This document shows, piece after piece, positions 3,275-25,275 of a DNA stretch of 64,000 bases. The stretch's first letter is position 1. Each line of letters opens with the position of its first letter. The position numbers and the translations under genes were made by a program. This DNA comes from a virus: the IMG/VR virus record IMGVR_UViG_3300010885_036069, positions 1 to 64,000 of that record. The stretch is one strand, 5' to 3'. The notes beneath the pieces were generated by a model that was not told the origin of the DNA, made no database searches, and saw nothing but the letters and a program-made list of their open reading frames with translations.

Positions 3275-3477
3275 GAGCTAGCCCTCACCTTTCTAGGGTG
3301 AAGGGGATCCTGCGTCGCCAGCGGCACTCATGACCCCTGGAGTCCGGCGTTAACGGACCATCGAGCGCGAGTTTAATGTTTCCCTCGCGAATACCGACCC
3401 GAAGGATCCCCGCTCCTGGGCGGGCAGCCCCGCTGTGAATAAGTGCGCGCGCCTGTGGATAACTAGGGCGGGACTCC

Positions 3478-3870
3478 CTACCCTTTGTAGGCTCCAGGGA
3501 AAGCGTTGACTGGCCTCACCTGGATAAAGTTCGCTGGGTCTTCAAGCCAGCCGCTCTTATCGCGCAGAGACTTCCCGCACTTCATGCAGGTTTCTGCCCA
3601 GGGATACCACCGTCGAGATGTTGCGGGGTGTGGGCAGTCGAGTAATTCTTTAGCCGCTGTGTCAGCCGCTGACCGAACGAACTCCGCCATTGAAACGCCC
3701 ATCTTCGCTGCGGAGTCTTTCCACCGCTGGTGACTTTCTGGTGATGTTCGAATAAGCACCTGGTTAGAACCTTCCCCAGGAGCGGCGCCAGTGCTACGCC
3801 GTCGAGTCGGTTTGATGTCAGCCGCTACGATTTCCATCGCTTCTTCCAAGCCATCTTCGTGGTCAGTCAT
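3478..3870 (-). CDS. RHH-like protein with Cys motif
   Basis: QVLIRTSPESHQRWKDSAAKMGVSMAEFVR; CPH...CMKCG. Confidence 0.65.
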   Translation of the reverse strand: MTDHEDGLEEAMEIVAADIKPTRRRSTGAAPGEGSNQVLIRTSPESHQRWKDSAAKMGVSMAEFVRSAADTAAKELLDCPHPATSRRWYPWAETCMKCGKSLRDKSGWLEDPANFIQVRPVNAFPGAYKG

Positions 3871-4499
3871 TAGAACACCTCATCTGGGATAATTACTGCG
3901 TCTTCTGGTTCATCGTCTGGGGCCGCCGGTAATGCTGGGAAATTTCCACCGAGCAGAGCGTGGGTTGTCTCGGCTGGGAGTACACCGGCCATCCCCATAA
4001 GTTCAATAAGTCGCTTGGCTTCGGTTTCTGGATCAAACTCATCCACCGCCGCCGCATGGTCTGAGGCTTCTGCCAGCACGGCGCGCGCTGGGGTGTTCTC
4101 GGCATCACCGACAAAGTTGATGTTCACCGCTTCCATTCCCAAGAGTTTAGCGCGCCGGTCCATAATTGATAGGGCTTGCTGCACCGCTTTGAGATCTGGC
4201 TCAACAACAACTTCGGTACCGTCATCCATCGCGATCTTTCGATGCTGGGTAAGTGGCCATACCGATTGCTGTAGAGAATCAAGCCGCTCGAGCTCCATCC
4301 GAAGAACCTCTGGGTAAGCCATCAGGGCTTCCTGGTTCATTCGAGAGAGTTGCCGTTGAATGGCAAAGTTCACCGCTTTGGTGGAAATGCCAAACCGTCG
4401 AGCGATTTCCTGAACCGCCGTACCGGTCTTCCGCATCTGGAAGATACGGAGATCGCGCTCAGCCAGGAACTCCCGTGTAAGTCCTTCACCGTTGCTCAT
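3870..4499 (-). CDS. HTH protein, terminase small subunit-like
   Basis: N-terminal HTH (GTAVQEIARRFGIS); ELERLDSLQ...IMDRRAKLLG as in actinophage TerS-like proteins. Confidence 0.6.
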   Translation of the reverse strand: MSNGEGLTREFLAERDLRIFQMRKTGTAVQEIARRFGISTKAVNFAIQRQLSRMNQEALMAYPEVLRMELERLDSLQQSVWPLTQHRKIAMDDGTEVVVEPDLKAVQQALSIMDRRAKLLGMEAVNINFVGDAENTPARAVLAEASDHAAAVDEFDPETEAKRLIELMGMAGVLPAETTHALLGGNFPALPAAPDDEPEDAVIIPDEVF

Positions 4500-6199
4500 G
4501 TCATTGAACTCCTGAAACTGATGACCTCGAATGGCATGATCGTTCCCCTCTTCATCCGAAGTGGGAAGTTCCGTTCATCGCGTGGTTCACGGAACCCCTT
4601 CCATTCGTATTCTTTTTCCATTGTTGTCGGATCCCGAGTGATACCGAAACCGAACTCTGGCCACCGCATCCATACCGCTGAATCCGCTGGCCTCATATCC
4701 CTGCCCGTAAGTGCGTTACCGAGTGGAGCGTGATGCTCCAGCCAGAGTGTTACACCGTAGTTGGCTCTGAGGTAGTCAAAGTAGGTACAGACTTCAGTGA
4801 TCAGGGCCGTAGAGGAACGGTTACCTGGATCTATGTATGACTTATAAATCGGTCCAAGGACGAGAAGTTGAGCGTCAGTCTTTACGATCTGCCGTTCAAG
4901 GAGTTCTCGGTCCTTCGTGTTCAAGATGTTAATGCCGTCTGGCTTGGTGTAGAGATCAGCCTCGCCAGGCCTTTTACCATAGTTGATTCTGAGCGATTCA
5001 ACAAGTTTGCGAGCTTGCCGTCTGATAATCCGTTCAGGGTTTTCAAGATCAACAAACAATGTTCGGATCGGTGGGATTTCCATGTAAGTGAATGGATGAA
5101 CTCCAGCACCGGCGCAAATTGCAATCTGTCGCGCCAAGGTTGTTTTACCGACACCTTCAGCAGCAACGATGACCACCCGCTCTTGCCGTTCCAGCAAACC
5201 GTCAATTAACCAGTCATATGGATCGGACTTAGTTTCGTTTACGAACTCGCCCCAGTTAATCAGGCGACCAGTCTTTGGCTCGTGCGGGACTTCTTCGGAG
5301 ATTGAGAGGATCTTCCTGGCTGCCGCCAGTCTTTCCTCAAGAGTTCCTGGTTTATCAAGAAGGCTCTGGAGGTTTGAAAGAACTGGGACAAATGGATCTG
5401 GTTCTCGAACTTCATCTTCCACCAGTTCAGAAATGTCACCGCCGGCCTTTAAAAGATCGGACACATCCTTATGCGGTTCTGGTGCATGCTTGATCTTCAC
5501 CGTGCAACCAACCGCAACAAGCTCAGTGGCTACATAATCAGCATGAATGCGACCCGGCTCATCATTATCAGCGATAATGGCAATGCGCGCGCCTTGAAGA
5601 GCTGCCGTGTGATTCGGTTTCCATTTTGAACCTTGACCGTTGTCAGCACCTTGAGGGTTGCATGTCGCCGTAAGACCCTTGGCGATCAGCGAGTCCGCAT
5701 CCTTTTCTCCCTCAACAATGAACACCGGCCTACCGTTTGCCACCGCATCAAGTACCGCCGGTAAGTTGTAGAGCGGTTTTTCTGAAAGATGCGTCGTTGA
5801 ATACTTCCAGCCGCTTCCTTCTTTTACTCTCTGGCGAAATTCTTTTCGACCGTCCGGTAAAGCGAAGCGAAGTACCTGGAATACCAGTTCACCGTCACCG
5901 TCGTAATAACCGTAAGTATTTGTAAGTTCTCCGTCCACAAACTCGCTTTTCTTTTCCTGGTACGGATGCAAGTCTCGCACCGTAAGTTCAATGGATTCAC
6001 AGATTTCATCGAGTGAACAAGCACTTCCGCCTCGATGACACTTCGCTAAAACTCGACCGTCGCGTCCTTCAACCACACTAAGTGATGGAGATTTGTCATC
6101 ATCTCGGCAAGGACACTGAGCAACCCAACCGTCACCGGAACGCCGTACACCGTTGAGCCGATCAAGGAAGTTCGTCATCGTCGGTGATGTAGCCGTCAC
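4496..6199 (-). CDS. DNA primase-helicase (Zn-binding + TOPRIM + RecA/AAA_25 helicase)
   Basis: CPC..D..PSL; IVEGEKDAD; IIADNDEPG; Walker A AAEGVGKT; LFVDLEN. Confidence 0.9.
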   Translation of the reverse strand: MTATSPTMTNFLDRLNGVRRSGDGWVAQCPCRDDDKSPSLSVVEGRDGRVLAKCHRGGSACSLDEICESIELTVRDLHPYQEKKSEFVDGELTNTYGYYDGDGELVFQVLRFALPDGRKEFRQRVKEGSGWKYSTTHLSEKPLYNLPAVLDAVANGRPVFIVEGEKDADSLIAKGLTATCNPQGADNGQGSKWKPNHTAALQGARIAIIADNDEPGRIHADYVATELVAVGCTVKIKHAPEPHKDVSDLLKAGGDISELVEDEVREPDPFVPVLSNLQSLLDKPGTLEERLAAARKILSISEEVPHEPKTGRLINWGEFVNETKSDPYDWLIDGLLERQERVVIVAAEGVGKTTLARQIAICAGAGVHPFTYMEIPPIRTLFVDLENPERIIRRQARKLVESLRINYGKRPGEADLYTKPDGINILNTKDRELLERQIVKTDAQLLVLGPIYKSYIDPGNRSSTALITEVCTYFDYLRANYGVTLWLEHHAPLGNALTGRDMRPADSAVWMRWPEFGFGITRDPTTMEKEYEWKGFREPRDERNFPLRMKRGTIMPFEVISFRSSMT

Positions 6200-6663
6200 G
6201 ACAAAACTTCCGGGGCGTCCTCAGGAAGGGCGTATCTTTGGAGTTCATCACGTTGAAGCACCAGCGCCCAAGAGGAAACGAACGCGCGTTTCTCAGGCGT
6301 ACCAGTCTCGCGCATCGCGATTCCGATGAGTTCATCAATTTCTTCATCTCCAGAGCCAGGCGGATCAATCCCCATGGTCACCGCTTCCCACCGTTGGGCC
6401 GCTAAGAACCACGCGCGCTCAGCATCAGGGATTCGTCCAGAACCGTTTGATCGATCAATCGTGGTCCGTCGAATCTCTCCGACCCTAGGCATCCATCGTA
6501 CATTCTCAAGAATGAGTTCGTCAAGTGTCTTCAGAACATCTGGATACTCCAGATCAGCCAGGTAACGCCACCATGTCCGATAAAGCGAAACCTTTCCGCC
6601 ATCGGGACTCCCCCAGTTGGAACACGCCAGATCAACAATCGCCGTAAGCTCAGCCTTCTGCAA
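6196..6663 (-). CDS. Helicase loader/inhibitor (G39P-like) protein
   Basis: WWRYLADLEYPDV...WMPRVGEIR; lies between the initiator-like gene and the helicase; TTG start assumed. Confidence 0.55.
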   Translation of the reverse strand: MQKAELTAIVDLACSNWGSPDGGKVSLYRTWWRYLADLEYPDVLKTLDELILENVRWMPRVGEIRRTTIDRSNGSGRIPDAERAWFLAAQRWEAVTMGIDPPGSGDEEIDELIGIAMRETGTPEKRAFVSSWALVLQRDELQRYALPEDAPEVLS

Positions 6664-6985
6664 GGAACTTCTCCTGATCGCTGAGTTCGGTTGCAAAACT
6701 GGCGAACCGTTCAATGTGTTCGGCATCCCGCAGGATCAGTTCAATCGAGTCGTACCGTTTACCGCTCGGATTATCCCCCATATGCCAGGGAGATTTAGCG
6801 CAGCCGTCAATTGCTAAGCGACATCCGTCTTCGCCGTACCAGGAAATTGCTTTAGCAATGAGCTTATTGCGCTTGTCGGTGAGAACTGGCGTCAAGCCCC
6901 GCCCCGTATTTCTGCATGTGGTGAGCCAGTAATCAAATACTCGCTGGACTTTGAGGCTGGTTGCTTCTTGAGAATCTTCCGTCAC
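6650..6985 (-). CDS. Phage replication-initiator C-terminal-domain-like protein
   Basis: VFDYW...LTDKR...AIDGCAKSPWHMGDN...YDSIELILR. Confidence 0.55.
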   Translation of the reverse strand: MTEDSQEATSLKVQRVFDYWLTTCRNTGRGLTPVLTDKRNKLIAKAISWYGEDGCRLAIDGCAKSPWHMGDNPSGKRYDSIELILRDAEHIERFASFATELSDQEKFLAEG

Positions 6986-7405: not shown

Positions 7406-7673
7406 AGTCGTCGCCTCAAGAGCTACTTGAATAATCGACTGGTAACCGTTCCATTCGGCTGATTCACATAGGTCGTTACCGTTAGTACCGTGCGAACTTT
7501 CAGGATGTCGCGACACCCAATGCCACCCTGGCCGTACGTTGTACGTACAACCAGACGCTCAGGGCTTAAGGCACTTCACTGGCCCTGACCAGTTGATGAA
7601 GGGGCGGCGAACCGAGCAAGAAAGGCGGTAACTAACTCAGTTCAGACGGTAGAACCCTCAACCGCCCCTTCAA
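7373..7673 (-). ncRNA. Putative ~300-nt structured ncRNA
   Basis: Bounded by a promoter (7680-7708) and a terminator; stems TGAAGGGGCGG/CCGCCCCTTCA, TCAGGGC/GCCCTGA, GGTAAC/GTTACC, AGTCG/CGACT; no ORF. Confidence 0.6.
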
Positions 7674-9028: not shown

Positions 9029-9097
9029 TGTTTCGCCTTTCTTGCAGAGGCATTTCCCCTACATTAGATAAACGCACTCTTCGGGTGAAGTGTGCGG

Positions 9098-9556
9098 TCA
9101 GTCGATCCAGGTCACTTGTGGTTGCTGGAGTTTCATAACGCCACCGCTGACGATCTGTCGCCAATGAGCTCCATCTTCACCGCGCCATTCAAACCACGGT
9201 GCGCTTTCATCATCAGATGAGAGAACTGGAGCAAGAGCGGCGATGAAGACATCTTCTGAACCGGTCTTATTGTCATAACGCAGGAATGAAATCCCACCGT
9301 TACCATCATCCTCAAGTTCAAATCCCAACTGAAGAAGGATTTCAAACGCGTTGGCGCATGTTTCGGGGTAGTTCCAATCCATCCATGAGAACCAAATGCC
9401 CTCATGTGGACCCTTGGATTCCTCTTCGCGAGGGAATGAGAATCCACGCTTGAGTTCGTTATGTTGATTGAGTTCACACAGAATCGTGTAAGCCTCGTTG
9501 AGCTGGTCCTTGCGGATGTATGCGTTGTTGCCTTCTAGTGTTACGTAGTAACCCAT
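9098..9556 (-). CDS. Hypothetical early protein
   Basis: AGAAAGG SD, class A promoter at 9645; WFSWMDWNYPET, WFEWRGEDG. Confidence 0.75.
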   Translation of the reverse strand: MGYYVTLEGNNAYIRKDQLNEAYTILCELNQHNELKRGFSFPREEESKGPHEGIWFSWMDWNYPETCANAFEILLQLGFELEDDGNGGISFLRYDNKTGSEDVFIAALAPVLSSDDESAPWFEWRGEDGAHWRQIVSGGVMKLQQPQVTWID

Positions 9557-9766
9557 GATTGCTGCCTTTCTGTTTGGGCCTTATAGGCCGTGATCGGTTG
9601 TTAGTAGGATACCCGACCAGCATTTGTTGGTCAAGTACTAGGTAAACGCATGAAGACCCATGAAATGTGCGCGCGTAATCCTGAAGAGCTTCGGGCCTGG
9701 AATCCCCCAGCAGCCCCGCTGGAGAAGTTTCGTGTAAGGGCAGCGGGACTGCTAGGCTCAACGCCC

Positions 9767-10162
9767 ATGAACTCGTTTCCTCATCAAGCGCGCTTTGAGC
9801 AGAACGTTGAACTGCTCAGAAAGCTCGTAGCAGACCAGGGAAGTTGCAATGTCCCCCTCTCTAAGCAGATTTTTGATGAGGCTGGAACTGTCAACATCGG
9901 TCGATGGGTTGGCTACATCAAGACTAAGCACAAGCAGGGTCGCCTTGATCCCTACAGGATCGCGACACTGGAGGCGATCCCTGGCTGGAACTGGGAAACT
10001 CGACGATCAGGTCCTGAACCTAAACAGGCAGAACGAGACAACGAGATCCGGAGTCTTCGCAGGCAAGGGATAACCCTGGAGGCGATTGCCTTCAACTACG
10101 GACTCTCTAAGCAACGTGTTGCTCAGTTGTGCGAGGGAGTCAGGCCGGCAAAGAACCCCTGA
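9767..10162 (+). CDS. Helicase-associated (HA) domain + HTH protein
   Basis: IGRWV....K.GRL...RIATLEAIPGWNW (HA-like); RDNEIRSLRRQGITLEAIAFNYGLSKQRVAQL (HTH). Confidence 0.7.
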   Translation: MNSFPHQARFEQNVELLRKLVADQGSCNVPLSKQIFDEAGTVNIGRWVGYIKTKHKQGRLDPYRIATLEAIPGWNWETRRSGPEPKQAERDNEIRSLRRQGITLEAIAFNYGLSKQRVAQLCEGVRPAKNP

Positions 10163-10167
10163 CGCGC

Positions 10168-10203
10168 TGAAGCCCACTGAGTGGCGGTACTCAGTGGGCT
10201 TCA
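10168..10203. terminator. Long hairpin between convergent genes
   Basis: TGAAGCCCACTGAGT-GGCGGT-ACTCAGTGGGCTTCA. Confidence 0.65.
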
Positions 10204-11710: not shown

Positions 11711-11769
11711 AAGTGCCTCCTAAGGGCGTTGTTTGGATGTGGGGGGACCGAAGTCCCCCCACAGTGGGG

Positions 11770-13420: not shown

Positions 13421-13713
13421 GTTTGCCTCCTAGGCTGTCAGGGGAGTTTCCCCCGTTATGTGTATAACGCACGCTCCGCCATGAAGTGTGCTGTGTTGCT
13501 GAATACATAGTGACACATAGGTGTGACACTTGCAAATCCGGTGTTGTAATAGGTAAACGCACGAACTAGCTCAATGTGTGCTGGGGATAACCCTAGGGAT
13601 AACTGATAAGTGGTAACCCTGTGGATAACCCTGGTCGAGCTGGGCAGTCCCGCTGGAGATAAGCGATGCGGGGCTATCGGCGGGGGGCCACCTTTCGGCA
13701 GCTCCCCCTTTGA

Positions 13714-14698: not shown

Positions 14699-14816
14699 TC
14701 GGAAACAGCCCAGGGGAAACCCTGGAGCTGCTCCGGCAGCCCCGCTGGATAGAAGCACGGCGGGACTACTGGAGCAGGCAAGCTCCCCCAGGAATCGGAG
14801 GAGCTTGTCTGCTGAG

Positions 14817-15511: not shown

Positions 15512-15513
15512 TC

Positions 15514-15783: not shown

Positions 15784-15899
15784 GATGGGTTCCTTTCTGT
15801 GGCGGGTACTTCCCGCCTTCATTGGTATAACGCACAATAATCGTAAAGTGTGCTGTGGATAACCTCGAGCTCCAGGTGTGGGCTAAGCAGTCCCGCTAC

Positions 15900-16088
15900 T
15901 CATACGCCCTCCTTCAGTTGAGCGGTAAAGATCACACCGTTAGGCGATTCAAGACGAATCAGACCATTGTCATCGGTGCTAATCGACCAAAGACTTTCAA
16001 CTTCATCGTCATCCAGCCCATCGTATTCCCACGCGGGAATGTCTGTTCGGAGTCGCAGATGCTCTATTGCTTCAATAAGTGAACTCAT
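15900..16088 (-). CDS. Hypothetical early protein
   Basis: Class A module + SD. Confidence 0.7.
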   Translation of the reverse strand: MSSLIEAIEHLRLRTDIPAWEYDGLDDDEVESLWSISTDDNGLIRLESPNGVIFTAQLKEGV

Positions 16089-16141
16089 AGTTTGCCTTTC
16101 TTCCTGGGGTATTTCCCCTTGTATAAGTATAACGCACTTAC

Positions 16142-16585
16142 TCAGACAGAGTGTGCGGTTGATGCCAGTTCTCGCGCCCATAGCGCGTAATCGGCATCGG
16201 AGTTGTCGTACCAAGATTCGAGAACACACCGAAGGGCGCTATCTGAAACTTGGTGATGGGTAACCTCGTCAAGAGCTTTAGGGTCATGCTGACCGTAGAT
16301 GTCGTAGTACCAACCGTCACCGTCAACCGCATAGAAGTGATCGCACATACAGGTACAGATACCGTCACCCATGTACGAGCATTCTTCAGGCTCTTCTTCA
16401 AAGCACTTCCAAGAGCCTACCGAAGCGGCAGTCCAGGTTGGATTCTGCTCTAAAAGGGCCGCGACATAGATGCCGCACCACCCCAGCGTGAACACGCTGC
16501 CGGCAGTCCCGCCCTCCATTTCGGGGATTTGCCCCAGGGCGGCGACATCCCGCAGGAACTGGACGGACTCGGGATACGCGCTCAT
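16142..16585 (-). CDS. Hypothetical protein
   Basis: ATGA-coupled to the upstream gene; GWCGIY...HFY...YDIYG. Confidence 0.65.
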   Translation of the reverse strand: MSAYPESVQFLRDVAALGQIPEMEGGTAGSVFTLGWCGIYVAALLEQNPTWTAASVGSWKCFEEEPEECSYMGDGICTCMCDHFYAVDGDGWYYDIYGQHDPKALDEVTHHQVSDSALRCVLESWYDNSDADYALWARELASTAHSV

Positions 16586-17257: not shown

Positions 17258-17634
17258 GATGCACTTCCTTCCTGTTGAGTTATGTAGGCAGAATACCATA
17301 AGGGTGAGACACACCTAATCGGCGCATCATCCCTTCCCTACATAAACGCACGAAGAGCTATGGAATGTGCATCCAATCGACGCCAGGAAATGCCGGCGCT
17401 GGGAGTCCCGAGTTATCCCCAGGTTTATCCACAGGGGAAACTCGGCGGGGCTATCGGCCTGGGCCACTCACTTAGTGAGCAGCTCAGCCGGGAGAAGGTG
17501 GCCTTCGATGTCGTTCCCGCACCCTTTGCAATACTCAATCCCATCGTCAATGAAGATGGTGGAGTACGCATCGCAGCAAGTAGTCGTACCGTCGGTCAAC
17601 CGAACGAAGGAAACCCTAAAGGGTTCGCGCTCGC

Positions 17635-18264: not shown

Positions 18265-18477
18265 ATGTCAGCGAAATTTGGATGGGGCAGTGCAGCAGCA
18301 GCGCACCTTGTGATTCAGGGTGACGCTGGAGATTTCAAAGATGTTTGGGCGTGGGCGTGGAATCACTACGGTGAGAACGCGATGTACGCCGATTGGGCCG
18401 ACGGTTTCGTTGTCGGCCTTCAGGCATCGGGCTACGCCCTAGAGGGCGCGGGTCGGGCGGTTCTCGAATCGGCCTAA
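18265..18477 (+). CDS. Hypothetical early protein
   Basis: Plus-facing class A module. Confidence 0.7.
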   Translation: MSAKFGWGSAAAAHLVIQGDAGDFKDVWAWAWNHYGENAMYADWADGFVVGLQASGYALEGAGRAVLESA

Positions 18478-18580
18478 CCGGTGGCCCCTCGGTGGAAACG
18501 CTGAGGGGCCATTGGCGCGCCTGGCCTTGAGCTGGCCCGACTAGCCCCGCTGGACTTATCCACAGCGGGACTGAGGGTGG

Positions 18581-18730
18581 TCAAACTTCGACCAGCTCCC
18601 CATCAATCCAAACCAGGGAGGCGACATCCTCTTCGCATTGCCAACACGTGGTGGTGGCAGCGTTGGTGCCATGATCGCAGATGTCATAGACATCATCGGT
18701 CAACCAATAGGTTGCGGGGAAATTGGTCAT
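18581..18730 (-). CDS. Small Cys/His protein
   Basis: Class A module; CDHG...CWQC. Confidence 0.6.
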   Translation of the reverse strand: MTNFPATYWLTDDVYDICDHGTNAATTTCWQCEEDVASLVWIDGELVEV

Positions 18731-18904
18731 GATCGCCTTTCTGCTCGGGGGTATTTCCCCTTCGCTACTGGTGAAACGCACGAAGAGGCCCGAAATGTGC
18801 ATCGGATCGCGAGGAAATCTTTCTGATCGATCAATGCACACTTCGGGTGGGTTCGTGCGTTTATCTATCAGAAGGGAGGAACGGCCTCCCCAAGAAAGGC
18901 AAGA

Positions 18905-19138
18905 ATGGAAACCCGCACATTGCAGGACATCGCTCGGGAGATCCGCAGCGATTGGAAATCCCCCTACTTCGGGGCGGTCCCCTACCTGGATGCCCTGAGT
19001 AGCCTCGGGAGCGTCAACGACCGATTCGGTTACGATTCCGGTCGCGACATGGTGATCTACTTCCTCAGCAATGCCACGACGTGGCGAGGCGAAACCGCCC
19101 GCAGGGTCAAGGCTGAGCTGAAGGCCTTGCTCAAGTGA
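18905..19138 (+). CDS. Small phage protein
   Basis: IAREIRSDWKSPYFGAVPYL...YFLSNATTWRGETARRVKAELK; class A module. Confidence 0.8.
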   Translation: METRTLQDIAREIRSDWKSPYFGAVPYLDALSSLGSVNDRFGYDSGRDMVIYFLSNATTWRGETARRVKAELKALLK

Positions 19139-19256
19139 GATCCGGCCCCCTTCGGGGGGCCACTTCTCGACTAGCCCCGCTGGTGAAATAAGCGGCGGGA
19201 CTGCCAAACAAAAAACCCCCCAGCCATTTCAGCCAGGGGGTTTCTCATTTCTGAAC

Positions 19257-19592
19257 TCAGCGAAGATGCTGTTCAGCACTAAATATTGCCTCATCGAGGG
19301 TGTGGCAAATGGAATCAAGGTGTTCGCCATCCTCGGTGTAAAGGTCAAACCAGGCATTGAGACGCCAAGCGAGTAGATCCTCGTCGTCTGGGATTCCGTA
19401 GGGGAATGTTTCACGAAACTCTTCAGGAGTCCGTACCACATTCACCGTTCCAAAAATACCCTTACGGTCGAAGTAGAGAAGCGCTTCACCGTCACGATGG
19501 ATTTCTACGGTCTTGCCGGCCCCTTCAAACGTGAGAACGACACCGTTGTCATAAAACTCGGGTTCCTGGTGCTGGAAGATTGTTTCTATCAT
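19257..19592 (-). CDS. Hypothetical early protein
   Basis: AGAAAGG SD; preceded by a coupled 44-aa ORF at 19589-19723. Confidence 0.7.
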   Translation of the reverse strand: MIETIFQHQEPEFYDNGVVLTFEGAGKTVEIHRDGEALLYFDRKGIFGTVNVVRTPEEFRETFPYGIPDDEDLLAWRLNAWFDLYTEDGEHLDSICHTLDEAIFSAEQHLR

Positions 19593-19883
19593 CTGTTGCC
19601 TTTCTGTTTCACCGTTACATGAGCTTCGGCAAGGGTTAGTGCTGCCTCGGCATAGAGTCGGGCAGCTCGGTCAAGGTGGGCCAATCGAATGAATCGGTGG
19701 CTGAGATTGAGGAGAATCCTCATGGTTACGCCTTTCTGTAGGGTGCTGTATCAGTATAACGCACGAAAGAGACAGAGTGTGCTGCATCTTTTCAATCCCA
19801 GCCAGGTGTCCCGCTGGGGTCGAGGGACGGCGGGACTACTGGGGACGCTGATCCCGAGGATTTCTCCCCGGGACCTGATTGAC

Positions 19884-20249
19884 TCACTCCTCCCCACACT
19901 TGTCGGCGTCAGCGAGGGCGGCCTTGTGGGTCCATTGCCGGCGGCGAAGGCGGGCATAGTCGCTGATGATTACCTCAGCGTCGCCGCACTCAATGCACTC
20001 CTCGTGGGTGGCACCGGAATAGAGCGCCTCAACATAACCGCCGAGGTCACCGACCGATTCGAAGGCCTCTAGGACCTGATCGTGAGCGGCACCGTGGTTG
20101 ATTGCGTCGGCATAGGCGCCGATGGTGTCGCAGATGTACGGAGCGAGCTTGTAGACCTGTTCGATTTGCTCAGGTGAAGCTCCGGCGGCAATAGCGATTG
20201 CGTACTGCTCTGGCTCTGCTTCAGCAGGGGCCGGTGGGGTCGGGTACAT
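19884..20249 (-). CDS. Helical repeat protein (~25-aa repeats)
   Basis: YAIAIAAGASPEQI / YADAINHGAAHDQV / YVEALYSGATHEEC / YARLRRRQWTHKAA. Confidence 0.7.
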   Translation of the reverse strand: MYPTPPAPAEAEPEQYAIAIAAGASPEQIEQVYKLAPYICDTIGAYADAINHGAAHDQVLEAFESVGDLGGYVEALYSGATHEECIECGDAEVIISDYARLRRRQWTHKAALADADKCGEE

Positions 20250-20389
20250 GAAATCATCCTTTCTCTGAAGGTATTTCCTTCAGTATCAGTATAACGCACG
20301 GAGCAATCCAGAATGTGCGCGCACACTTCGCAGCTCTGCGTGCGTTATACCTATACAAGCGAGGAAGTGCCTCGCCAAGAAAGGCAAAC

Positions 20390-20668
20390 ATGAGCTTCGT
20401 ATCGGACGCTATGTCCCCTGAGGAGGTCGCTAAGCGACAGTCGAATCAGGGCCTCGTGATTGACGAGTCGTGGTCAGACCCGACCTACGGCACGACAGTC
20501 CGCAAGTATGTGCGCTACACCAACGGGTGGACCTACACCTTTGAGAAGCGCATCCTCCCCGACTACACGCGTTGGGCATGGAATGTCGCAGGACCTGATG
20601 GCTACTTCTTTGACGAGGCTGATTCTGAGGATGACGCCATCGCCATGATTTGGGCGCAGAGTCGCTGA
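20390..20668 (+). CDS. Hypothetical early protein
   Basis: Plus-facing class A module. Confidence 0.7.
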   Translation: MSFVSDAMSPEEVAKRQSNQGLVIDESWSDPTYGTTVRKYVRYTNGWTYTFEKRILPDYTRWAWNVAGPDGYFFDEADSEDDAIAMIWAQSR

Positions 20669-20841
20669 CCACGGTCAATCAGGTCCCGAGTGAACCGCCC
20701 ACTCGGGACCTGATGCGCGTCCGGGTCTGGGCGAGTAGCCCCGCTGGAAATAAGTGCGGCGGGACTGCTGGGGTCAATCGACTAGGGCCAGGCGCGCGTG
20801 CTGGGGCGCGAAAAAGGGGAGGGTTTCCCCTCCCCTCTCGG

Positions 20842-21180
20842 TCAGACTGCGGTGTAAAGAGCGTTCCACTCGTCAAAGCAGATTGGACCATCGTCGTTTC
20901 CTGACGATACCCAAATCTCCTTGCCATCACGGTCAAGTGATGCCGACCAATGAAGTATGTATTCGGCAGGTTCTGAGAGCGATCCCGCAAAGGTTTCGGT
21001 CGCTTCACCGTTCAGGTAAAGGATAAGACCCTTTGTCCATTCAGGGGCAACCTCAACCTCAAACTGTTCGCAGTAGGCCTCGGGAATGTCAATGGCATGA
21101 CTGAAATCGTCGTAACAGTCGCAGGCATCATCAACAAGTTTCTCAATGAAATCGGCGGGCTTCTCTAGCGTTGTTTCCAT
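20842..21180 (-). CDS. Hypothetical acidic early protein
   Basis: AGGAGG SD, class A and B promoters. Confidence 0.7.
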   Translation of the reverse strand: METTLEKPADFIEKLVDDACDCYDDFSHAIDIPEAYCEQFEVEVAPEWTKGLILYLNGEATETFAGSLSEPAEYILHWSASLDRDGKEIWVSSGNDDGPICFDEWNALYTAV

Positions 21181-21440
21181 TCTTGCCTCCTAAGGCGTTG
21201 TTGTTATGTAGATCATTGTACGCAGGGGGTGTGACAGTTCCTTTCGGGCGGTCCCTGCGGTGTTACTAGTGAAACGCACCAAGTGGTCCGAAGTGTGCTG
21301 GGGATAAACCTGGGGATAACCTCGAGCTGGGGACAAACCTGTGGACAAGCTCGGGCAGCCCCGCTGGAACAAAAGGTCGACGGGACTCCCAGCGGGCCAG
21401 GCGCGAAAAAACCCCCGCCCGAAGGCGAGGGCCAATTCAC

Positions 21441-21809
21441 TCAGAAATAAACGGGGATCCGCTCAATTTCTGAAATCGGTTTCGGTGACCAATGCAGGTC
21501 ACGCTCCACCACTATCGGGCCAACGATCAGCGTCGCTAGTTCGGTCAGCGGGATGTAGCCCCACTCACCGCATCCGGCGAGAACCTCGGCCCAACCAAAC
21601 GCCTCACCGGTTTGTGGGTCAAGTTCGGTGATGTACCAATCGGCGTTGCCTGCGAAGTAGTGCAGATGCACGATCTTCTCGGCGGTCGGGATGTTCTCGG
21701 TACCGTAGAGGGGCGGGATTGCCCCTAGCACCGCTGCGGGTGCTTTGAACTTGTGGCCACGGCGACGATCTACCGTCGCGACCTCTGGGGTTTCTAGAAC
21801 TGCGGACAT
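21441..21809 (-). CDS. DUF2958-family protein
   Basis: IPPLYGTE...HYFAGNADWYITE.D...AFG...EWGYIPLTEL. Confidence 0.8.
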   Translation of the reverse strand: MSAVLETPEVATVDRRRGHKFKAPAAVLGAIPPLYGTENIPTAEKIVHLHYFAGNADWYITELDPQTGEAFGWAEVLAGCGEWGYIPLTELATLIVGPIVVERDLHWSPKPISEIERIPVYF

Positions 21810-22014
21810 TGTTACTGCCTTTCTGTCGGGGACACTTACAAAGGTATAACGCACGAGGGACCACAAAGTGTGCGCTCGTGATGGGGACGATCCCCAACAA
21901 AGACAGTATGACAGCAGGGTGTGACAGAGCTCCCCGACCCAATGTCACACCCTCGGCGTATTGTGCGTTATACATACAGAGAGGGGATGTACCCCTCGCA
22001 AGAAAGGCATCGCG

Positions 22015-22194
22015 ATGATTCGCATAGACGGAGTACTCATGTCGGAAGCGCAGTATCGGATCCTCGTGTCCGCGCTTGAGCATCAGGTTGAGGTGGACGA
22101 TTTCTTTGAGGAGGACGGTAGGGAACCGACCGACTCGGCAAAACTCCTCATCATGTTCCAAAGCATCGGGCGGGTTCAGGGGCTAGACCTCTGA
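22015..22194 (+). CDS. Hypothetical early protein
   Basis: TGTCACA-N16-CGTT promoter + hairpin + SD. Confidence 0.65.
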   Translation: MIRIDGVLMSEAQYRILVSALEHQVEVDDFFEEDGREPTDSAKLLIMFQSIGRVQGLDL

Positions 22195-22503
22195 CCTGCG
22201 CGATCGCGCATGATCCACAGGCTGGGGATAACCTGGCCTGTGGATTTCCTGTGGATAACCTGGCGAGCTGTGGATAACGCTCGACAGCCCCGCTGGGGAT
22301 AACTCCAGGCTGGGGACAAACCCGGCGGGACTGACTGGGCGAATTGATCTGGGCCAGGCGCGCGCTGGCGAGTGGTTCTGGGGGAAATTGACTGGCGATC
22401 CCAGAATCCCTGGAGTCCCGAGGTTTTTGACCTGGCTCGGCCTGGAACCTGGACTGGACCCGGGCGGGACTGTTGGTCGGGGCAGCTCATGCCACCCCAG
22501 GCC

Positions 22504-22806
22504 TCACGCTCCCTCTTCCTTGCCGGACCATTCCCGCTTCAGGAAACCTGACAGCGAGGCGTAATCATCGCTGTACTTCAGGACCATGTACGAAACGAGA
22601 ACCTGGGCCTCTTCAGCGTCACGAACCACCGTGAAGGTTTCAGGGCCACCGTCACCAATGTCGCTGGTGCGAATCACAGAAACGAAGGTTTCGTCGCTGT
22701 CAAAGGAGTCAATCACATAAATCGTGACATCATCCCAAAGGATGGCGACACCGCCTGGAACAGGGTCCACATTCGGGAATGTGGCGAACAGGACATCAGT
22801 AGACAT
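22504..22806 (-). CDS. Hypothetical early protein
   Basis: Class A module. Confidence 0.7.
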   Translation of the reverse strand: MSTDVLFATFPNVDPVPGGVAILWDDVTIYVIDSFDSDETFVSVIRTSDIGDGGPETFTVVRDAEEAQVLVSYMVLKYSDDYASLSGFLKREWSGKEEGA

Positions 22807-22969
22807 AATCGCTGCCTTTCTTCGGAAGGTCGTTCCTTCCTATGTATAAGAAACGCACGAACTCCCCAGGAATGTGCGCGCGCATTCGGGAAACCCTCAT
22901 GCACACTTCGCGTGGTTTCGTGCGTTTACCTAATACGAACGAGGAAGTGCCTCGTAAGGAAAGGTAGTC

Positions 22970-23203
22970 ATGGAACACTTCTCGGATGCCCTAACCCCCG
23001 AACAGGTCGCTGACCTGGAAATGGCAGTCTACGCAGCCACCCGCGATGCCCTAGCGCGAAACCTGAAGGAATGGGAGGCTACTGACGACGAATCAGCATG
23101 GATGGAACTACAGGTTTCTCTAGAAGCATTCGCCGTGTTCACGCCAAACCTAGATCATCACCAGCGCATCCTGTTCGCCCAAACATGGAACGCCATGAGC
23201 TGA
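22970..23203 (+). CDS. Hypothetical early protein
   Basis: Plus-facing class A module. Confidence 0.7.
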   Translation: MEHFSDALTPEQVADLEMAVYAATRDALARNLKEWEATDDESAWMELQVSLEAFAVFTPNLDHHQRILFAQTWNAMS

Positions 23204-23424
23204 GAGGAAAGGCTGACCGGGAAACCGGCAGCCCGCCTCCAGTAGCCCCGCTGGATCTGCGGACTCGGCGGACTGGAGCCTCGACGGGACTGTTGACGAA
23301 TAAAAAAAATCCCCCCAGGGTGGACTGGAGGGAATTCTTTAGGCAGCAATCAGGTGAACGATTGTCGCCAAAACTACGACCACGATGGGTAGTAGGGCGG
23401 GGATGAAAAGGTCATCCATGAAAC

Positions 23425-23673
23425 TCACTTTCCTTTCGCATAGGGGGTGTAGTGGTCAAAGCACACCGTTTGGAATAATGGACACTCGCTAGCGGGGAGA
23501 ACGACTACCCCTTGAGGTAGATCCTTTCCGCAGACACCGTTACCCATTGTGTTGCAATCCCAACAGGGCTGATCTTCTTCGCACTTCTCTGCTGCTTTGG
23601 GAGCAGTCGATTGACTACATCCGCCAATGACGAGGGCGGAAGCGAGTGCTACTGCCAAAACTATCTTCTTCAT
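23425..23673 (-). CDS. Putative lipoprotein
   Basis: Signal peptide with lipobox-like IGGC; CEEDQPCWDCNTMGNGVCG. Confidence 0.7.
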   Translation of the reverse strand: MKKIVLAVALASALVIGGCSQSTAPKAAEKCEEDQPCWDCNTMGNGVCGKDLPQGVVVLPASECPLFQTVCFDHYTPYAKGK

Positions 23674-24058
23674 AGTGTTGCCTTTCTTTCGGTTGATGAA
23701 ATCAGTATATCAGAGTGGAGTGACAGAGGCTTCGCCTTCAGGTAAATCGTGAAGCCACGCGAATCGTTTCCCGAGGGTGATGATGAACTCACGACGCCCG
23801 AGGGTGAGGATGAAATACATGTGCTGCCTTTCTCCGGCGAGACTCTCTCGCCTTCAGGAGTAAAACGCACAATGTTCGCGATGCGTGCTGTGAAACCTGG
23901 CGAGCTGGAGTAATGCTCAACAGTCCCGAGGTTGTTGACTTGGCTCCAGGGACTGGAACCTGGCGGGGCTGACTGGGAGACCTGGAAAAAATCGACAAAA
24001 GCTCAAGAAATTGCTGGAGTCGAGTCAAAATCACCTGGAGCCGGCTGAAAAGTGTTGC

Positions 24059-24271
24059 TATGGTGACGAAATGGAGCCTTTTTCTTGCTTTTTTTGCGAA
24101 TGCCCAGTCGATCCGAACGATTCTTACGTGTATCGACGAGTTACGGCCTGGGTTGAGAACAAGAAATCCAGTAGCCCCGCCCTGCTCCAGTCCCCGGCGA
24201 CTGGGTATGCGTGTCGAATCTGCATTGACATCCGGCGAAATAAGGTCGGCCAGAAGGAAAGTTTGTTCTAA
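24059..24271 (+). CDS. Small Zn-finger protein
   Basis: CFFC...YRRVTAW...ACRIC; start uncertain. Confidence 0.45.
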   Translation, partial: YGDEMEPFSCFFCECPVDPNDSYVYRRVTAWVENKKSSSPALLQSPATGYACRICIDIRRNKVGQKESLF

Positions 24272-24347
24272 CCCAGCGGGGCTGCCCGGCGATTGTCGAG
24301 GAAGCCAGGACGCGAAAAGACCCCCACCGAAGTGAGGGTCTGTCCGA

Positions 24348-24557
24348 TCAGAGGGAGGCGAACCGCTTATCGGCTTCGTACTGCGCCGCCAATTGGTTGG
24401 CTTCGTCCTCGTACCGTGCCTGAAGTTCAGCCTCAAGCACCGCTACTCGGTTTTGATACACCTCCTCTGAGGGATCCTCGCCAAGCTCGGCTACCAAGTT
24501 GGCCCAAATACCTTCAAGCCAATCGGTGTAACCGTCATCTTCATACGGGTTACGCAT
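24348..24557 (-). CDS. Hypothetical acidic protein
   Basis: Class B promoter + SD. Confidence 0.65.
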   Translation of the reverse strand: MRNPYEDDGYTDWLEGIWANLVAELGEDPSEEVYQNRVAVLEAELQARYEDEANQLAAQYEADKRFASL

Positions 24558-24637
24558 GTTCGCCTTTCCGCTATCCGGCCCTTCCGAACAGCACTGCAAC
24601 TACTCCGTCAGTATGACAGACCCTTGTGACAGGCCGA

Positions 24638-24787
24638 TCAGAACGGTTCCACAGAGGAACCGTCCTGATGATCCGGCGTGGGGAGGGGGCCGTTGGTGGC
24701 TTCCTCATGATCGCCGTAGTCCTCAGTGTGAGAACAAGCACCGGTTTGATAAAACCGACAACAAGCGGTCAGATCCCAAAGTTCCAT
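24638..24787 (-). CDS. Small hypothetical protein
   Basis: Class B promoter + SD; ACC...GACSHTE. Confidence 0.55.
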   Translation of the reverse strand: MELWDLTACCRFYQTGACSHTEDYGDHEEATNGPLPTPDHQDGSSVEPF

Positions 24788-25022
24788 GACTCCACCTTTC
24801 TCGCTGACCGGTCCGTCCGGCACAGCACTTCAACTACAAAGACAGTATGACAGACCCCTGTGACAGAGCTTCGGGAGTACGCCGAGTACGCCGAACGGCT
24901 GAGTCCGCCGAGTCCGCTCGTGTCGACTGATTCCTGGCGCTCCCCCAGTAGCCCCGCTGGGCAAACTGTGGATAACCCTGTGGAAAAGTCGGGACTGCCA
25001 GGGAATCGAGTAAAACGCCAGG

Positions 25023-25076
25023 GATCTGGAGTTTTTACCCAGATCTGGAGTTTTTTTTACCCAGATCGGGAGTTTT
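25023..25076 (+). repeat. Three tandem GATC(T/G)GGAGTTTT repeats
   Basis: gatctggagtttttacccagatctggagttttttttacccagatcgggagtttt. Confidence 0.75.
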
Positions 25077-25275
25077 GGCTGGGTCGATCCAATTCCTGGC
25101 GTCCCAGTCAGCCCCGCTGGGGTCGATGCGCCAGCCAGGGAAAACCGGGGCGGGGCTACTGGCGGAAAGCTCGAGGTGCCAGGACTGGGAATGAACTTCC
25201 GAACTCATGCACATTTCTTCGGGTTACGAGCGTTCCCTCTATGCGAAGGGAAACGCCCCAAGCAGAAAGGCATGA

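Follow-up and report, generated by a model that had tools for sequence, protein, structure and literature searches.

In the temperate phages phiC31 (of Streptomyces) and P1, whose repressors are known, many copies of one fixed-size repressor site (the conserved inverted repeats, CIRs, and the C1 operators, respectively) lie across the early region together with repeated unusual promoters. Integron attC sites and REP/BIME elements are imperfect inverted repeats found at cassette borders or in intergenic DNA. Cluster A mycobacteriophages carry stoperators, described as asymmetric 13-mers that follow the direction of transcription and are bound by a two-domain monomer, the L5 gp71-type repressor, with one phage protein reading all sites (PMC9283540). 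The PeSLs of T4-type phages are reported as repeats that combine a promoter with a stem-loop, lie on either side of ORFans, and mediate their shuffling (PMC2839356; PMC4122927). At the level of binding, one ribbon-helix-helix (RHH) dimer is described as recognizing a single 7-bp repeat that is not palindromic and may lie in either orientation (PMC9499535), and an RHH tetramer as binding two half-sites 15 nt apart, equal to two turns (PMC5385501).

Here, we describe a repeated site in a large uncultured freshwater phage, within the initial 64 kb (hereafter, the window) of its 116.7-kb IMG/VR record. The site is the 7-bp word AGYCCCG, found alone or as two inward-facing copies, which we call a bracket. 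Like the CIRs and C1 operators, it occurs as scattered copies of one site in the early region. As with stoperators, tens of copies of a short asymmetric site are spread over a phage genome, at promoters and in short intergenic gaps (PMC9283540), and a single reader is predicted here; unlike stoperators, the word is 7 bp, its orientations are equal, it forms an inward pair with quantised spacing, and no integrase was found. The arrangement also recalls PeSLs, in which a promoter and a G/C-rich inverted repeat flank small orphan early genes that are gained, lost, or replaced as cassettes (PMC2839356; PMC4122927). However, PeSL stem-loops are working terminators beside sigma-70 promoters, whereas brackets have a 14–34 nt centre without a T-run, their arms are one exact word that also stands solitary within genes, and the accompanying promoter motif P is not sigma-70-like (3 sigma-70-like hits vs 9.6 expected). 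The omega/ParB heptads of pSM19035 likewise use a non-palindromic 7-bp unit, direct or inverted (PMC9499535), and NikR has half-sites two helical turns apart (PMC5385501), comparable to the short bracket centres of 23–25 bp. Omega requires contiguous, gap-free heptads and NikR one spacing, whereas here there are four spacing classes, many solitary sites, and a predicted RHH reader. The likeness to attC and REP/BIME lies in imperfect inverted repeats at cassette borders; unlike those, the brackets are not uniformly oriented, lack conserved unpaired bases, and come without an IntI or RAYT-type gene in the searches made, and the arm is defined by its exact letters, not by a structure, and also occurs unpaired inside genes.

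Inward-facing word pairs in the window

The preliminary description listed 15 pairs plus one at 39430–39539, and all lie at those coordinates, although the left arm at 19808 is degenerate (GGTCCCGC) and a further pair at 22414–22471 (T/T, spacer 44) had been missed. Both the word and the inward pair are in excess of shuffled or random placement, and the spacers fall into classes. The window holds 22 copies of AGCCCCGC and 21 of GCGGGACT, each against an expectation of 1.9; for AGCCCCGC, the highest count in 100 shuffles was 7. There are 16 inward-facing AGYCCCG pairs in the window vs ~1 expected, a count of non-independent units since within-genome copies are partly paralogs. At separations of ≤120 nt, 18 pairs face inward, 3 face outward, and none is direct. 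Between 3 and 32 kb, 15 inward-facing pairs have a spacer of ≤50, compared with a mean of 1.1 when 51 words were placed randomly (largest 6, 5,000 trials); a harsher null, with all words squeezed into a quarter of this region, gave a mean of 4.5 and a maximum of 13. The real unit is the 7-mer. It is confined to one 20–35 kb early/replication block, on both strands and in every reading frame.

Inner spacers of the window brackets, measured between 7-mers, are 16, 16, 16, 16, 16, and 17 bp; 25 bp; 33, 33, 34, 34, 35, 35, and 36 bp; and 44 bp. The quantised lengths first reported with an 8-mer measure (14–15, 23, and 31–34) are equivalent to 16–17, 25, and 33–36 here. Hetero brackets, with one C arm and one T arm, make up 13 of 16 (binomial p = 0.011 vs 0.5, with copies non-independent); as originally noted, 13 of the 15 listed earlier are hetero, and these comprise 10 C-left/T-right and 3 T-left/C-right. 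A DnaA-like box (≤1 mismatch to TGTGGATAA) lies inside 5 of 16 brackets (3426, 17404, 18543, 22286, and 24950). By rough gene calls, every bracket is intergenic or in a doubtful small ORF, in agreement with the earlier placement between cassettes, and brackets lie ~110 nt or less from a stop codon. About half of the paired sites are 26–64 nt upstream of the repeated non-sigma-70 motif P, and seven brackets are at convergent junctions with no promoter nearby. The brackets are listed below, without strand, by left/right arm type and spacer (bp).

3426..3475, C/T, spacer 36; two DnaA-like boxes, TGTGAATAA and TGTGGATAA; 2 nt past the stop of the RHH-Zn gene 3478–3870(−)
9712..9750, C/T, spacer 25; between P(−) 9645–9670 and ATG 9767 of a conserved + gene
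13646..13675, T/C, spacer 16; hairpin before, DnaA-like boxes and P(−) after
14738..14767, C/T, spacer 16; convergent gene junction
17404..17452, T/C, spacer 35; two boxes on the − strand; P(−) 33 nt downstream
18543..18572, C/T, spacer 16; encloses TTATCCACA; convergent junction
19173..19202, C/T, spacer 16; flanked by a hairpin and a two-way terminator-like hairpin; convergent junction
19808..19837, degenerate; left arm GTCCCGC after a G, right arm T type; P(−) 26 nt downstream
20737..20766, C/T, spacer 16; convergent junction
21357..21387, C/T, spacer 17; on the − strand, T-run terminator, bracket, three DnaA-like boxes, P(−)
22286..22332, C/T, spacer 33; encloses TGGGGATAA and TGGGGACAA
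22414..22471, T/T, spacer 44; absent from the earlier list
23244..23291, C/T, spacer 34; short + gene before, terminator-like hairpin after
23922..23970, T/C, spacer 35
24950..24996, C/T, spacer 33; encloses TGTGGATAA and TGTGGAAAA
25110..25157, C/C, spacer 34; P(+) at 25209, 52 nt downstream

In relatives L013–L016, the arms of the 3426 bracket are conserved and its first box is perfect. The L013 ortholog of the 9712 bracket keeps arms and spacer length while its spacer sequence has diverged. The polarity of 13646 is flipped, as its L013 ortholog is C/T.

Words outside brackets were also located:

5285..6901, words at 5285(−), 6603(−), and 6895(+); solitary, primase-helicase gene and neighbours
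15889..16511, + strand, solitary T-type words at 15889 and 16505
24173..25907, words at 24173(+), 24277(−), 25651(+), 25729(−), and 25901(+); wide pairs or alone
27320..29148, no strand assigned, eight solitary words, all in the SNF2 helicase gene or at its end
30167..31052, + strand, solitary T-type words at 30167 and 31046
39430..39667, T-type words at 39430(+), 39533(−), and 39661(−); flank both halves of a dense DnaA-box array

Those at 5285 and 6895 are conserved in L013. The load on replication genes is eight words for the SNF2 helicase and 0–8 for the primase-helicase across records. In related genomes G002 and G003, solitary words occur in all frames, sense and antisense, and their best hairpin partners score no better than control (means 5.25 vs 5.22 and 5.45 vs 5.24). 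A second motif near the word was not found within 45 nt in G001, and in G002 plus G006 the search gave only the adjacent base.

The word and its spacing rule across relatives

A clade of freshwater phages of roughly 120–160 kb uses AGYCCCG, which ranks first in heptamer enrichment in 9 of the 15 loci tested from relatives (9.6–18.7 fold). Between 25 and 48 kb of G002, AGTCCCG occurs 38 times and every one-letter neighbour at most 7 times, so that each of its 7 positions is specified. It is under purifying selection: at orthologous places, 20 of 31 words are kept between G002 and G003 (vs 27.7% of background 7-mers) and 8 of 9 between the window phage and L013 (vs 30%). The word is conserved across primase-helicase identities of 43–47%, and in loci of 41–71% G+C, therefore probably across many hosts. 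Its two orientations are near balance (36/50, 20/22, 16/15, 50/36, and 23/19).

We surveyed 101 distinct inward-facing pairs from 146 related loci or records. Spacers fell at 16–20 (n = 56), 24–27 (n = 18), 35–38 (n = 8), and 43–47 bp (n = 7), with none at 21–23 or 28–34, whereas direct pairs in the same loci were broadly spread. The step between classes is ~9–10 bp, vs 10.5. Many lineages fix the loop at 17–18 while its sequence varies. The spacers of the 56 short pairs vary in sequence and show no added pairing (median best-strand z −0.11); the 35–38 class shows some (median z −1.8, n = 8). Window spacers mostly have z from −1.3 to +1.8, with the exceptions of 17404 (−2.7/−3.0) and 22286 (−3.4). 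In G012, 30 of 36 words are in fixed-spacing pairs; in L225, 8 of 9 brackets lie at a fixed distance, 45–52 nt, from a flanking motif; and L250 has brackets at divergent, tandem, and convergent junctions.

Two elements of the preliminary description proved local. The fixed mismatch and polarity hold for this lineage but not for relatives, in which 47 of 56 short-spacer pairs are C/C. DnaA-box-like 9-mers are enriched in the window phage and present in its nearest relatives, but not in word-bearing G001, G002, G005, and G006. Both the boxes and the C/T mismatch are best read as acquired within this lineage. Of the proposed helically phased site for a protein plus DnaA, the phased-site part gained support from the ~9–10 bp steps, unrelated spacers, and lack of added pairing in relatives, with DnaA a local layer only.

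Candidate reader proteins

The genes nearest the first bracket, and one at the record start, are as follows.

1..1693, + strand, C-5 cytosine methyltransferase pieces, at the record start
2526..3081, − strand, two small RHH-like genes (2872–3081, and 2526–2867 with a Cys-rich tail)
3478..3870, − strand, candidate reader, 130-aa RHH protein that carries C-x-H...C-x-x-C; throughout the clade, its gene follows those for the primase-helicase and the HTH protein
3870..4499, − strand, second candidate reader, 209-aa GerE/sigma-region-4-type HTH protein; 41–57% identical in five large relatives

The primase-helicase, HTH, and RHH-Zn proteins have relatives in 5 of 5 large related records, and in surveyed loci the matches adjoin in that order. 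The model of the RHH protein has a strand-helix-helix followed by a Cys/His hairpin; its best fold matches are nearly all RHH DNA binders, but with E > 0.1, and its RHH Pfam matches are below curated cut-offs. The RHH and HTH proteins are also present in word-less loci, which are short. Presence of the C-5 cytosine methyltransferase family tracks T-type words across records.

Interpretation and alternatives

With a probability of about one half, we propose that the brackets are double-stranded binding sites for a phage-encoded protein, possibly one of the RHH/zinc candidates, with an operator or insulator role at cassette junctions. The sites, the selection on them, their spacing rule, and their position are observed, whereas the protein, its binding, and its effect on transcription are what we infer from sequence. 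Each of the two inward-facing copies would be read by this protein, and the two bound units would touch each other at a separation of complete helical turns; word centres are most often 23–25 bp apart, with longer forms at ~9–10 bp steps. The best candidate readers would be the conserved RHH/zinc protein at 3478–3870 or its small paralogs, with the HTH protein at 3870–4499 as second choice.

A bracket could instead act as an RNA or single-stranded DNA hairpin (a 3′ stabiliser, processing site, factor-dependent terminator, or priming signal), with C/T giving a G.U (G.T) wobble to tell the working strand from the other. The stems, of 7–8 G+C-rich pairs, fold at −12 to −25 kcal/mol, the nearby stop codons and the extended stems of the long forms noted above (17404, 22286, and the 35–38 class) fit, in 11 of 15 brackets the wobble is on the minus strand, which carries most genes, and C/T is the type of all six convergent-junction brackets preceded by a short + gene. 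We nevertheless consider this rather unlikely. Loops are 14–34 nt with spacer pairing no better than shuffles, a hairpin does not need a fixed 17–18 loop of variable sequence, hetero arms are an imperfect state yet dominate in this phage, and polarity flips between orthologs. Brackets lack a T-run and none of 9 terminator-like hits is a bracket; that at 21357 lies beyond a true terminator and before a promoter motif, and therefore outside the mRNAs. One L250 bracket is at a divergent junction, partnerless solitary words are under selection, and no Rfam family matches a bracket. Separately, we note that the G.U in minus-strand RNA for 11 of 15 brackets is more simply accounted for by an RNA reading.

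It is quite unlikely that brackets and promoter motif are conserved linkers with no dedicated reader relevant to their spread, serving like PeSLs as short homologies for swapping, loss, or gain of early genes. Cassette genes are indeed deleted or replaced in contigs of three other freshwater or river runs: gene 14817–15365 is lost (break points 14841/15384), another is replaced over a stretch that starts at its ATG and ends at the left edge of bracket 18543 (18267/18542), gene 20842–21180 is replaced (20846/21183), and 15883–15897, at solitary word 15889, is replaced by 310 other letters. Break points are at gene and element edges, so a passive role as homology for recombination may apply, but they are mostly gene starts or stops and only 1 of 15 listed joints touches a bracket edge. 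Arms of 7–8 bp with variable spacers are very short for homologous exchange, and fixed spacing, selected solitary words in conserved genes, and word conservation at such primase-helicase divergence are left unexplained. A linker role is compatible with the binding-site reading as a side effect.

The spacer classes here are about one turn apart, as under the 12/23 rule, and almost all cassette junctions carry one heptamer, then a spacer of fixed length but variable sequence, then a second, inverted heptamer. Together with cassette content that varies between populations, this layout could point to a site at which a site-specific recombinase or nuclease cuts or exchanges DNA at cassette borders (attC-, RSS-, lox-, or homing-site-like), for which the two HNH-repeat/HTH proteins at 35222–37122 might be considered. 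This is very unlikely. Phage_integrase, Resolvase, and Y1_Tnp were not found in this record, nor an integrase or resolvase in the bracket- or word-bearing incomplete G001 and G005 or complete G006, G011, and G012; the HNH-repeat proteins had no match in G001–G005 (a search run without a positive control); solitary words in essential genes would be dangerous cut sites; and only one observed joint coincides with an arm. The folded attC/REP-type recombination site offered in the preliminary description is not supported, with no integrase or resolvase found in these six records and no Y1 protein in this one, a hairpin weakened because the arms are hetero, and a polarity flip at an orthologous site.

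Least likely of all is a 7-mer read by a host machine, as a Chi-like signal for a break-processing nuclease or a nucleoid/replication protein site, with brackets a by-product: selected scattered oligomers have precedent in LLS and P1, where Chi is described as the commonest octamer, clustered near one end (PMC12315714), the word is T or C by lineage as a host-specific signal might be, and words flank DnaA-box arrays in the window phage, but its orientations are nearly equal, unlike the 20:3 and 32:0 reported for Chi-rich phages (PMC12315714), fixed-spacing pairs hold most G012 words, the range of G+C suggests many hosts, and, among the first 120 matches listed when 185,579 species genomes were scanned for the bracket, each stretch had one and no genome was multi-copy.

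For the binding-site reading, a plain operator role does not cover all brackets, because seven are at convergent junctions without a nearby promoter, and the crowding of words in some replication genes is not accounted for; solitary words there would serve the same protein as weaker sites. Paired sites in the gaps between small early-gene cassettes would set or shut transcription of those cassettes, acting as operators or insulators. The frame has, in this lineage, taken on DnaA-box-like 9-mers, and competition or cooperation is therefore probable between the reader and whatever binds the boxes, be it host DnaA or a protein of the phage.

Paired heptamers in the window

The window holds 55 copies of the heptamer AGYCCCG (the word), in a C-type (AGCCCCG) and a T-type (AGTCCCG) form; AGCCCCGC occurs 22 times and GCGGGACT 21 times, each against 1.9 expected. 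Two inward-facing words and the spacer between them form a bracket, which we name by its left coordinate. Every pair listed in the preliminary description was recovered at its position, although the left arm of 19808 proved to be degenerate, and one further pair lies at 22414-22471. Pairs within 120 nt comprised 18 inward-facing, 3 outward-facing, and no direct pairs, and close inward-facing pairs numbered 15 against 1.1 expected under random placement. Inner spacers between the heptamers were 16–17 bp in seven pairs, 25 bp in one, 33–36 bp in seven, and 44 bp in one. Thirteen of the 16 pairs had hetero arms (one C-type, one T-type), with a left/right polarity of C/T in 10 and T/C in 3. The original observation is thus confirmed, and is wider than first described.

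The source record is linear, with 116,661 bases and an estimated completeness of 79% (IMG/VR). Words of this phage were found in freshwater and river metagenomes from 11 studies, and megablast of positions 17000-26000 against deposited phage and plasmid records returned no near-identical DNA. Among the data sets listed as covering 16001-26000, none was RNA. Gene positions in the window are rough calls by codon-usage score; the left 41 kb includes the following.

4496-6199, minus strand, primase-helicase
3870-4499, minus strand, helix-turn-helix (HTH) protein
3478-3870, minus strand, small ribbon-helix-helix protein (RHH-Zn)
2872-3081 and 2526-2867, two further small ribbon-helix-helix (RHH) proteins, three in all
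left 41 kb, SNF2 helicase, DUF932 protein, SSB, and amidase
9-26 kb, both strands, dozens of tiny genes

A full-length match to the Pistol self-cleaving ribozyme (Rfam, 44.2 bits against a gathering score of 34.5) lies at 7521-7593 on the minus strand, in a gap among the replication-module genes. The orphan gene at 20842-21180 had no relative in IMG/VR.

The heptamer across the phage clade

Relatives were fetched via the primase-helicase (61 loci) and the SNF2 helicase (80 loci). AGTCCCG or AGCCCCG alone was the top-enriched heptamer in 9 of 15 loci tested, at 9.6- to 18.7-fold, and enrichment was seen in loci with a primase-helicase just 43–47% identical. The word is sharply defined: G002, a related record, has 38 copies of AGTCCCG and at most 7 of each one-letter neighbor. 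In each large record, the words occupy a single block of 20–35 kb.

Blocks with words in this phage and in related phage records
This phage: 0-40 kb
G001: 35-70 kb
G002: 25-50 kb
G005: 5-35 kb
G006 (complete): 90-115 kb

Strand use was near equal (forward/reverse 36/50, 20/22, 16/15, 50/36, and 23/19), and words fell in all three frames, sense and antisense (14 and 17 in locus L049, with L070 and L047 alike). Around solitary words, a nearby complement was not above control, and no second motif at a fixed distance was found within 45 nt in G001, or past the adjacent base in G002 and G006. The words are under purifying selection: 20 of 31 were kept as words between G002 and G003, which are 80% identical, against 27.7% of background 7-mers, and 8 of 9 between this phage and the near-relative locus L013, against 30%.

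A single word lies beyond 41 kb in the window, but a Markov estimate by hand expects only ~2, and this apparent late-region avoidance is nonspecific because TCCCG is rare there overall. The reverse word resembles the T7 primase site, GGGTC, but restriction of the words to a single region and the lack of a strand switch speak against a role as primase recognition site. Two giant ORFs carry many solitary words, one of 2,063 aa with 15 words and an RNase_T exonuclease domain (G002:C1:41349-47540, L072:11349-17540) and one of 3,155 aa with 14 (G006:C1:93692-103156). At G001:C1:54700-55350 (L076 and L077), at least five co-oriented AGYCCCG words stand 34–57 bp apart in an A/C-rich stretch, as seen at L047 2631-2805, a tandem-like array unlike the brackets.

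Spacer length, spacer sequence, and pairing

A survey of 146 loci or records of relatives, with this genome left out and each set of identical pairs counted a single time, gave 101 inward-facing pairs.

Inner spacers of inward-facing pairs in relatives
16-20 bp: 56 pairs (17 bp, 27; 18 bp, 15; 19 bp, 9)
21-23 bp: 0 pairs
24-27 bp: 18 pairs
28-34 bp: 0 pairs
35-38 bp: 8 pairs
43-47 bp: 7 pairs

The 35 outward-facing pairs in relatives peaked at 24-27, and the 49 direct pairs were broadly spread. The complete genome G012 has 36 copies of AGCCCCG and none of AGTCCCG, and 30 of its 36 words lie in 15 brackets between 45.6 and 64.2 kb. In the main spacer class, which comprises 7 of 16 pairs here (16–17 bp) and 56 of 101 in relatives (16–20 bp), word centers are 23–27 bp apart. 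This matches, in geometry alone, the NikR-type arrangement of paired inverted half-sites with a separation of about two turns of the helix.

Inverted arms could also form a hairpin in RNA or single-stranded DNA. Some extra pairing was seen in the small 35–38 bp class of relatives and, unlike in most brackets, in the spacers of 17404 and 22286. The 56 short pairs of relatives had a median best-strand z of −0.11 against shuffled spacers, with no added pairing, and spacer z in the window was mostly −1.3 to +1.8, likewise with no added structure. Spacer sequence in relatives varies from copy to copy. Fixed length, free sequence, and no added structure together fit a protein contacting both arms on duplex DNA, not a hairpin, which we regard as unlikely though the best of the alternatives. 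Brackets, with loops of 14–34 nt and no T-runs, do not look like intrinsic terminators, in which a loop of only a few bases closes a G+C-rich stem and a T-run follows. None of nine terminator-like matches in 8.5-27.5 kb is a bracket, and the 21357 bracket has a true T-run hairpin next to it.

We give a probability of about 0.5 to the reading that a phage protein acting at cassette junctions binds the bracket as duplex DNA, with DnaA-box cargo as a local addition.

Brackets, promoter-like motifs, and DnaA-like boxes

The promoter-like motif GCACAYTT-N10-GTGCGTT(TA..CTAnTA) occurs at least 23 times on the two strands of 9040-25280, where it also appears as repeat families D1, D2, and D6. After the motif come a small stem-loop (GAGGAAnnnCCTC type), a ribosome site, and ATG, and many copies are arranged back to back as divergent pairs. 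Sigma-70-like promoters fall below the chance level (3 against 9.6 expected). Seven brackets (9712, 13646, 17404, 19808, 21357, 23922, and 25110) lie 26–64 nt upstream of the promoter motif, and at 13646 and 21357 the gap is filled by DnaA-like boxes. Another seven (14738, 18543, 19173, 20737, 22286, 22414, and 23244) lie at convergent gene junctions. On the minus strand at 21357, a stop codon and then a T-run terminator precede the bracket, and three boxes and then the promoter follow it; therefore, this bracket is outside both mRNAs. A further repeated motif, GACAGTATGACAG-N6-GTGACAG (family D11), occurs at 21897-21931, 24836-24870, 24602-24636, 23696-23730, 17282-17316, and, on the minus strand, 39795-39805.

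In relatives, brackets of L250 (the G012 locus) occupy divergent, tandem, and convergent junctions by naive ORF calls. In L225, the G011 locus, RCTTATY lies 45–52 nt left of eight of nine brackets and RATAAGY 41–58 nt right of six of nine, making a symmetric composite. G001 has its own bracket family, AGCCCCG-N44-47-CGGGGCT, with a C-rich inner motif, beside promoter-like sequence. Because of these arrangements, the bracket frame is considered old, with contents that differ by lineage.

DnaA boxes had been described as part of the element. Five of the 16 brackets contain a 9-mer matching TTATCCACA with at most one mismatch, and the remaining 11 hold weaker look-alikes or none, so this part stands for some brackets here; as a general feature it does not, since G001, G002, G005, and G006 have no box cluster. 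There are 16 perfect boxes in the window and 58 with at most one mismatch in the whole record. At 39353-39660, a divergent gene junction, an array packs ~20 boxes into 400 bp, including nine that share one orientation at ~12-bp spacing, and three T-type words flank its two halves, which links words and boxes in this lineage.

A second motif (…GGTAGATAAGT / GTGATAAAAAAGT, RATAAGY) is enriched ~7- to 8-fold in L225 1-8000 and L250 1-8000. It stands at fixed distances on both sides of G011 and G012 brackets and resembles the window 9-mers TGGAGATAAG / TGTGGATAAC. As RATAAGY flanks those brackets at a fixed distance, the window 9-mers may be a local version of a phage motif and not purely DnaA boxes.

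Cassette variation and known element types

Contigs from three other sequencing runs showed cassette genes lost or replaced, while being 85–95% alike elsewhere. The following genes were deleted or replaced in other freshwater or river populations.

14817-15365
15368-15511
18265-18477
20842-21180
25529-25756

Most break points were at the start or stop of a gene; bracket 18543 was hit once, at its left edge, and the 15889 solitary word once. The repeated promoter motif (23 copies) and the cassette indels resemble PeSL-type cassettes, but here there is neither a sigma-70 promoter nor a terminator-type stem-loop. Cassette loss and replacement fit PeSL-like shuffling through general recombination (PMC2839356, PMC4122927), and the variation does not call for a dedicated recombinase. 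That the bracket is simply a passive linker for recombination is unlikely, and we rank it just behind the hairpin.

Site-specific cutting or exchange at the bracket is improbable. No Phage_integrase, Resolvase, or Y1_Tnp match was found in the 116.7-kb record of this phage, and no integrase or resolvase in G001, G005, complete G006, G011, and G012. PF00589, the test for an integron integrase (a tyrosine recombinase), was likewise absent from all six, while its control was positive in 14 of 14 genomes. Integron attC sites have a single orientation and a folded strand with conserved unpaired bases, and brackets have neither: their polarity is mixed and flips between orthologs, and their spacers lack added structure. 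The proposed attC-like site is therefore not supported. Nor is its REP/BIME-like counterpart with a RAYT supported in the record of this phage, which has no PF01797 (Y1/HUH transposase) match.

Least probable of all is that a host protein reads the word. A bracket scan of 185,579 species genomes gave, among the at least 120 stretches listed, one match each in unrelated taxa, which is no more than chance, and among the matches listed points to no host. The exact short bracket matched one stretch in IMG/VR, apparently a chance coding match, and the four words, searched as whole words, had no match in the papers searched. Chi-rich phages show orientations of 20:3 and 32:0 (PMC12315714), whereas the words here lack a strong single-orientation bias. 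Stoperators likewise repeat an asymmetric site many times (the window has 55 words, and relatives show 10- to 19-fold enrichment) but differ in that word orientation here is not tied to transcription direction.

C- and T-type arms and a C-5 cytosine methyltransferase

The fixed C/T mismatch with polarity holds as a mismatch for 13 of 16 pairs here and not beyond: in relatives, hetero arms are rare, and C/C arms make up 47 of the 56 short pairs. At the orthologous site 13646, this phage has T/C and L013 has C/T, while the loop aligns directly (8/14, by eye), so the mismatch has no fixed strand. The C/T mismatch is a local trait of this lineage, as are the DnaA-like boxes.

T-type words go with a phage C-5 cytosine methyltransferase. 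The family was found in G000, G002, G006, G015, and G016, with T shares of 0.60, 0.93, 0.85, 0.63, and 0.48, and was not found in G001, G011, G012, G018, and G019 (each at least 87% complete), with T shares of 0.27, 0.03, 0, 0.03, and 0.37. The separation is complete, 5 against 5 (exact two-sided p ~0.008, by hand, uncorrected for shared descent). Words in G019 are barely above a reversed-pattern control. Eight methylase-negative fragments (G005, G010, G013, G014, G017, G020, G021, and G022) were left out because absence in a fragment says little; one of these, the 11% complete G014, has a T majority. Within 1-1693 of the window, three separate pieces match C-5 cytosine methyltransferase, and two of these, located in different ORFs, correspond to one and the same C-terminal region of the family. 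The record start may truncate the gene, or the gene may be split or duplicated.

Candidate reader proteins

Predicted candidates for reading the word are the RHH-Zn and HTH proteins. Each of the five large related records has relatives of the primase-helicase, of the 209-aa GerE-type HTH protein, and of the 130-aa RHH protein, and the three matches adjoin in that order in the loci surveyed. Six residues of the RHH protein are invariant (Q37, R41, W50, K51, C79, and H81), and two more, C95 and C98, are nearly so. The model of this protein (mean pLDDT 73, >89 over residues 41–70) has a strand-helix-helix and a Cys/His hairpin, and its best fold matches are nearly all RHH DNA binders (ParG, TacA, AtaR, NikA, CopG, and Arc; rmsd 0.7–1.7 Å over ~40–47 residues, E-values >0.1). 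Pfam matches to RHH fell below curated cut-offs. RHH proteins are described as reading 7-bp repeats regardless of orientation (PMC9499535) and half-sites separated by two turns (PMC5385501), precedents that make RHH proteins fair candidates, nothing more. The HTH protein matched only viral clusters in the ESM Atlas, and a Protein Data Bank sequence search with the two candidates gave nothing useful.

Three other proposals were dropped. The HNH-repeat/HTH pair (35222-37122) as readers of C and T words had no match in G001–G005 in a search run without a positive control. An extra RHH paralog as C-word reader is also present in T-type G006, and an RHH strand residue tracking word type (K before Q in T-type lineages) is inseparable from common descent.

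Implications

A more ambitious proposal, which we hold to be quite unlikely as a whole, is that this clade of large lytic freshwater phages has its own DNA address system with an epigenetic third base, tying early cassettes and an oriC-like array to host DnaA state. One protein would read the 7-bp word, and word pairs would clamp variable cargo at whole helical turns. T would be a hard-wired stand-in for 5-methyl-C made by the phage C-5 methyltransferase, and C/T hetero brackets would be methylation-sensitive switches. In this phage, the cargo would be DnaA boxes, and ~15 early cassettes and the oriC-like array would follow host DnaA state.

If the bracket were merely a conserved recombination linker, it would document PeSL-like cassette shuffling outside the T4 group. 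If the duplex binding-site reading is true, the brackets would be a family of regulatory sites with an exact and simple rule (one heptamer, inward-facing, whole turns), common to many uncultured freshwater phages of ~120–160 kb, three with complete genomes. They would give a handle on how such phages arrange dozens of tiny early genes, would mark the early region in metagenomic contigs, and could offer a short portable site with a small reader protein for synthetic control. The link between the methyltransferase and T-type words, and the loading of brackets with DnaA boxes in one lineage, provide directly testable ideas on the coupling of phage to host state.
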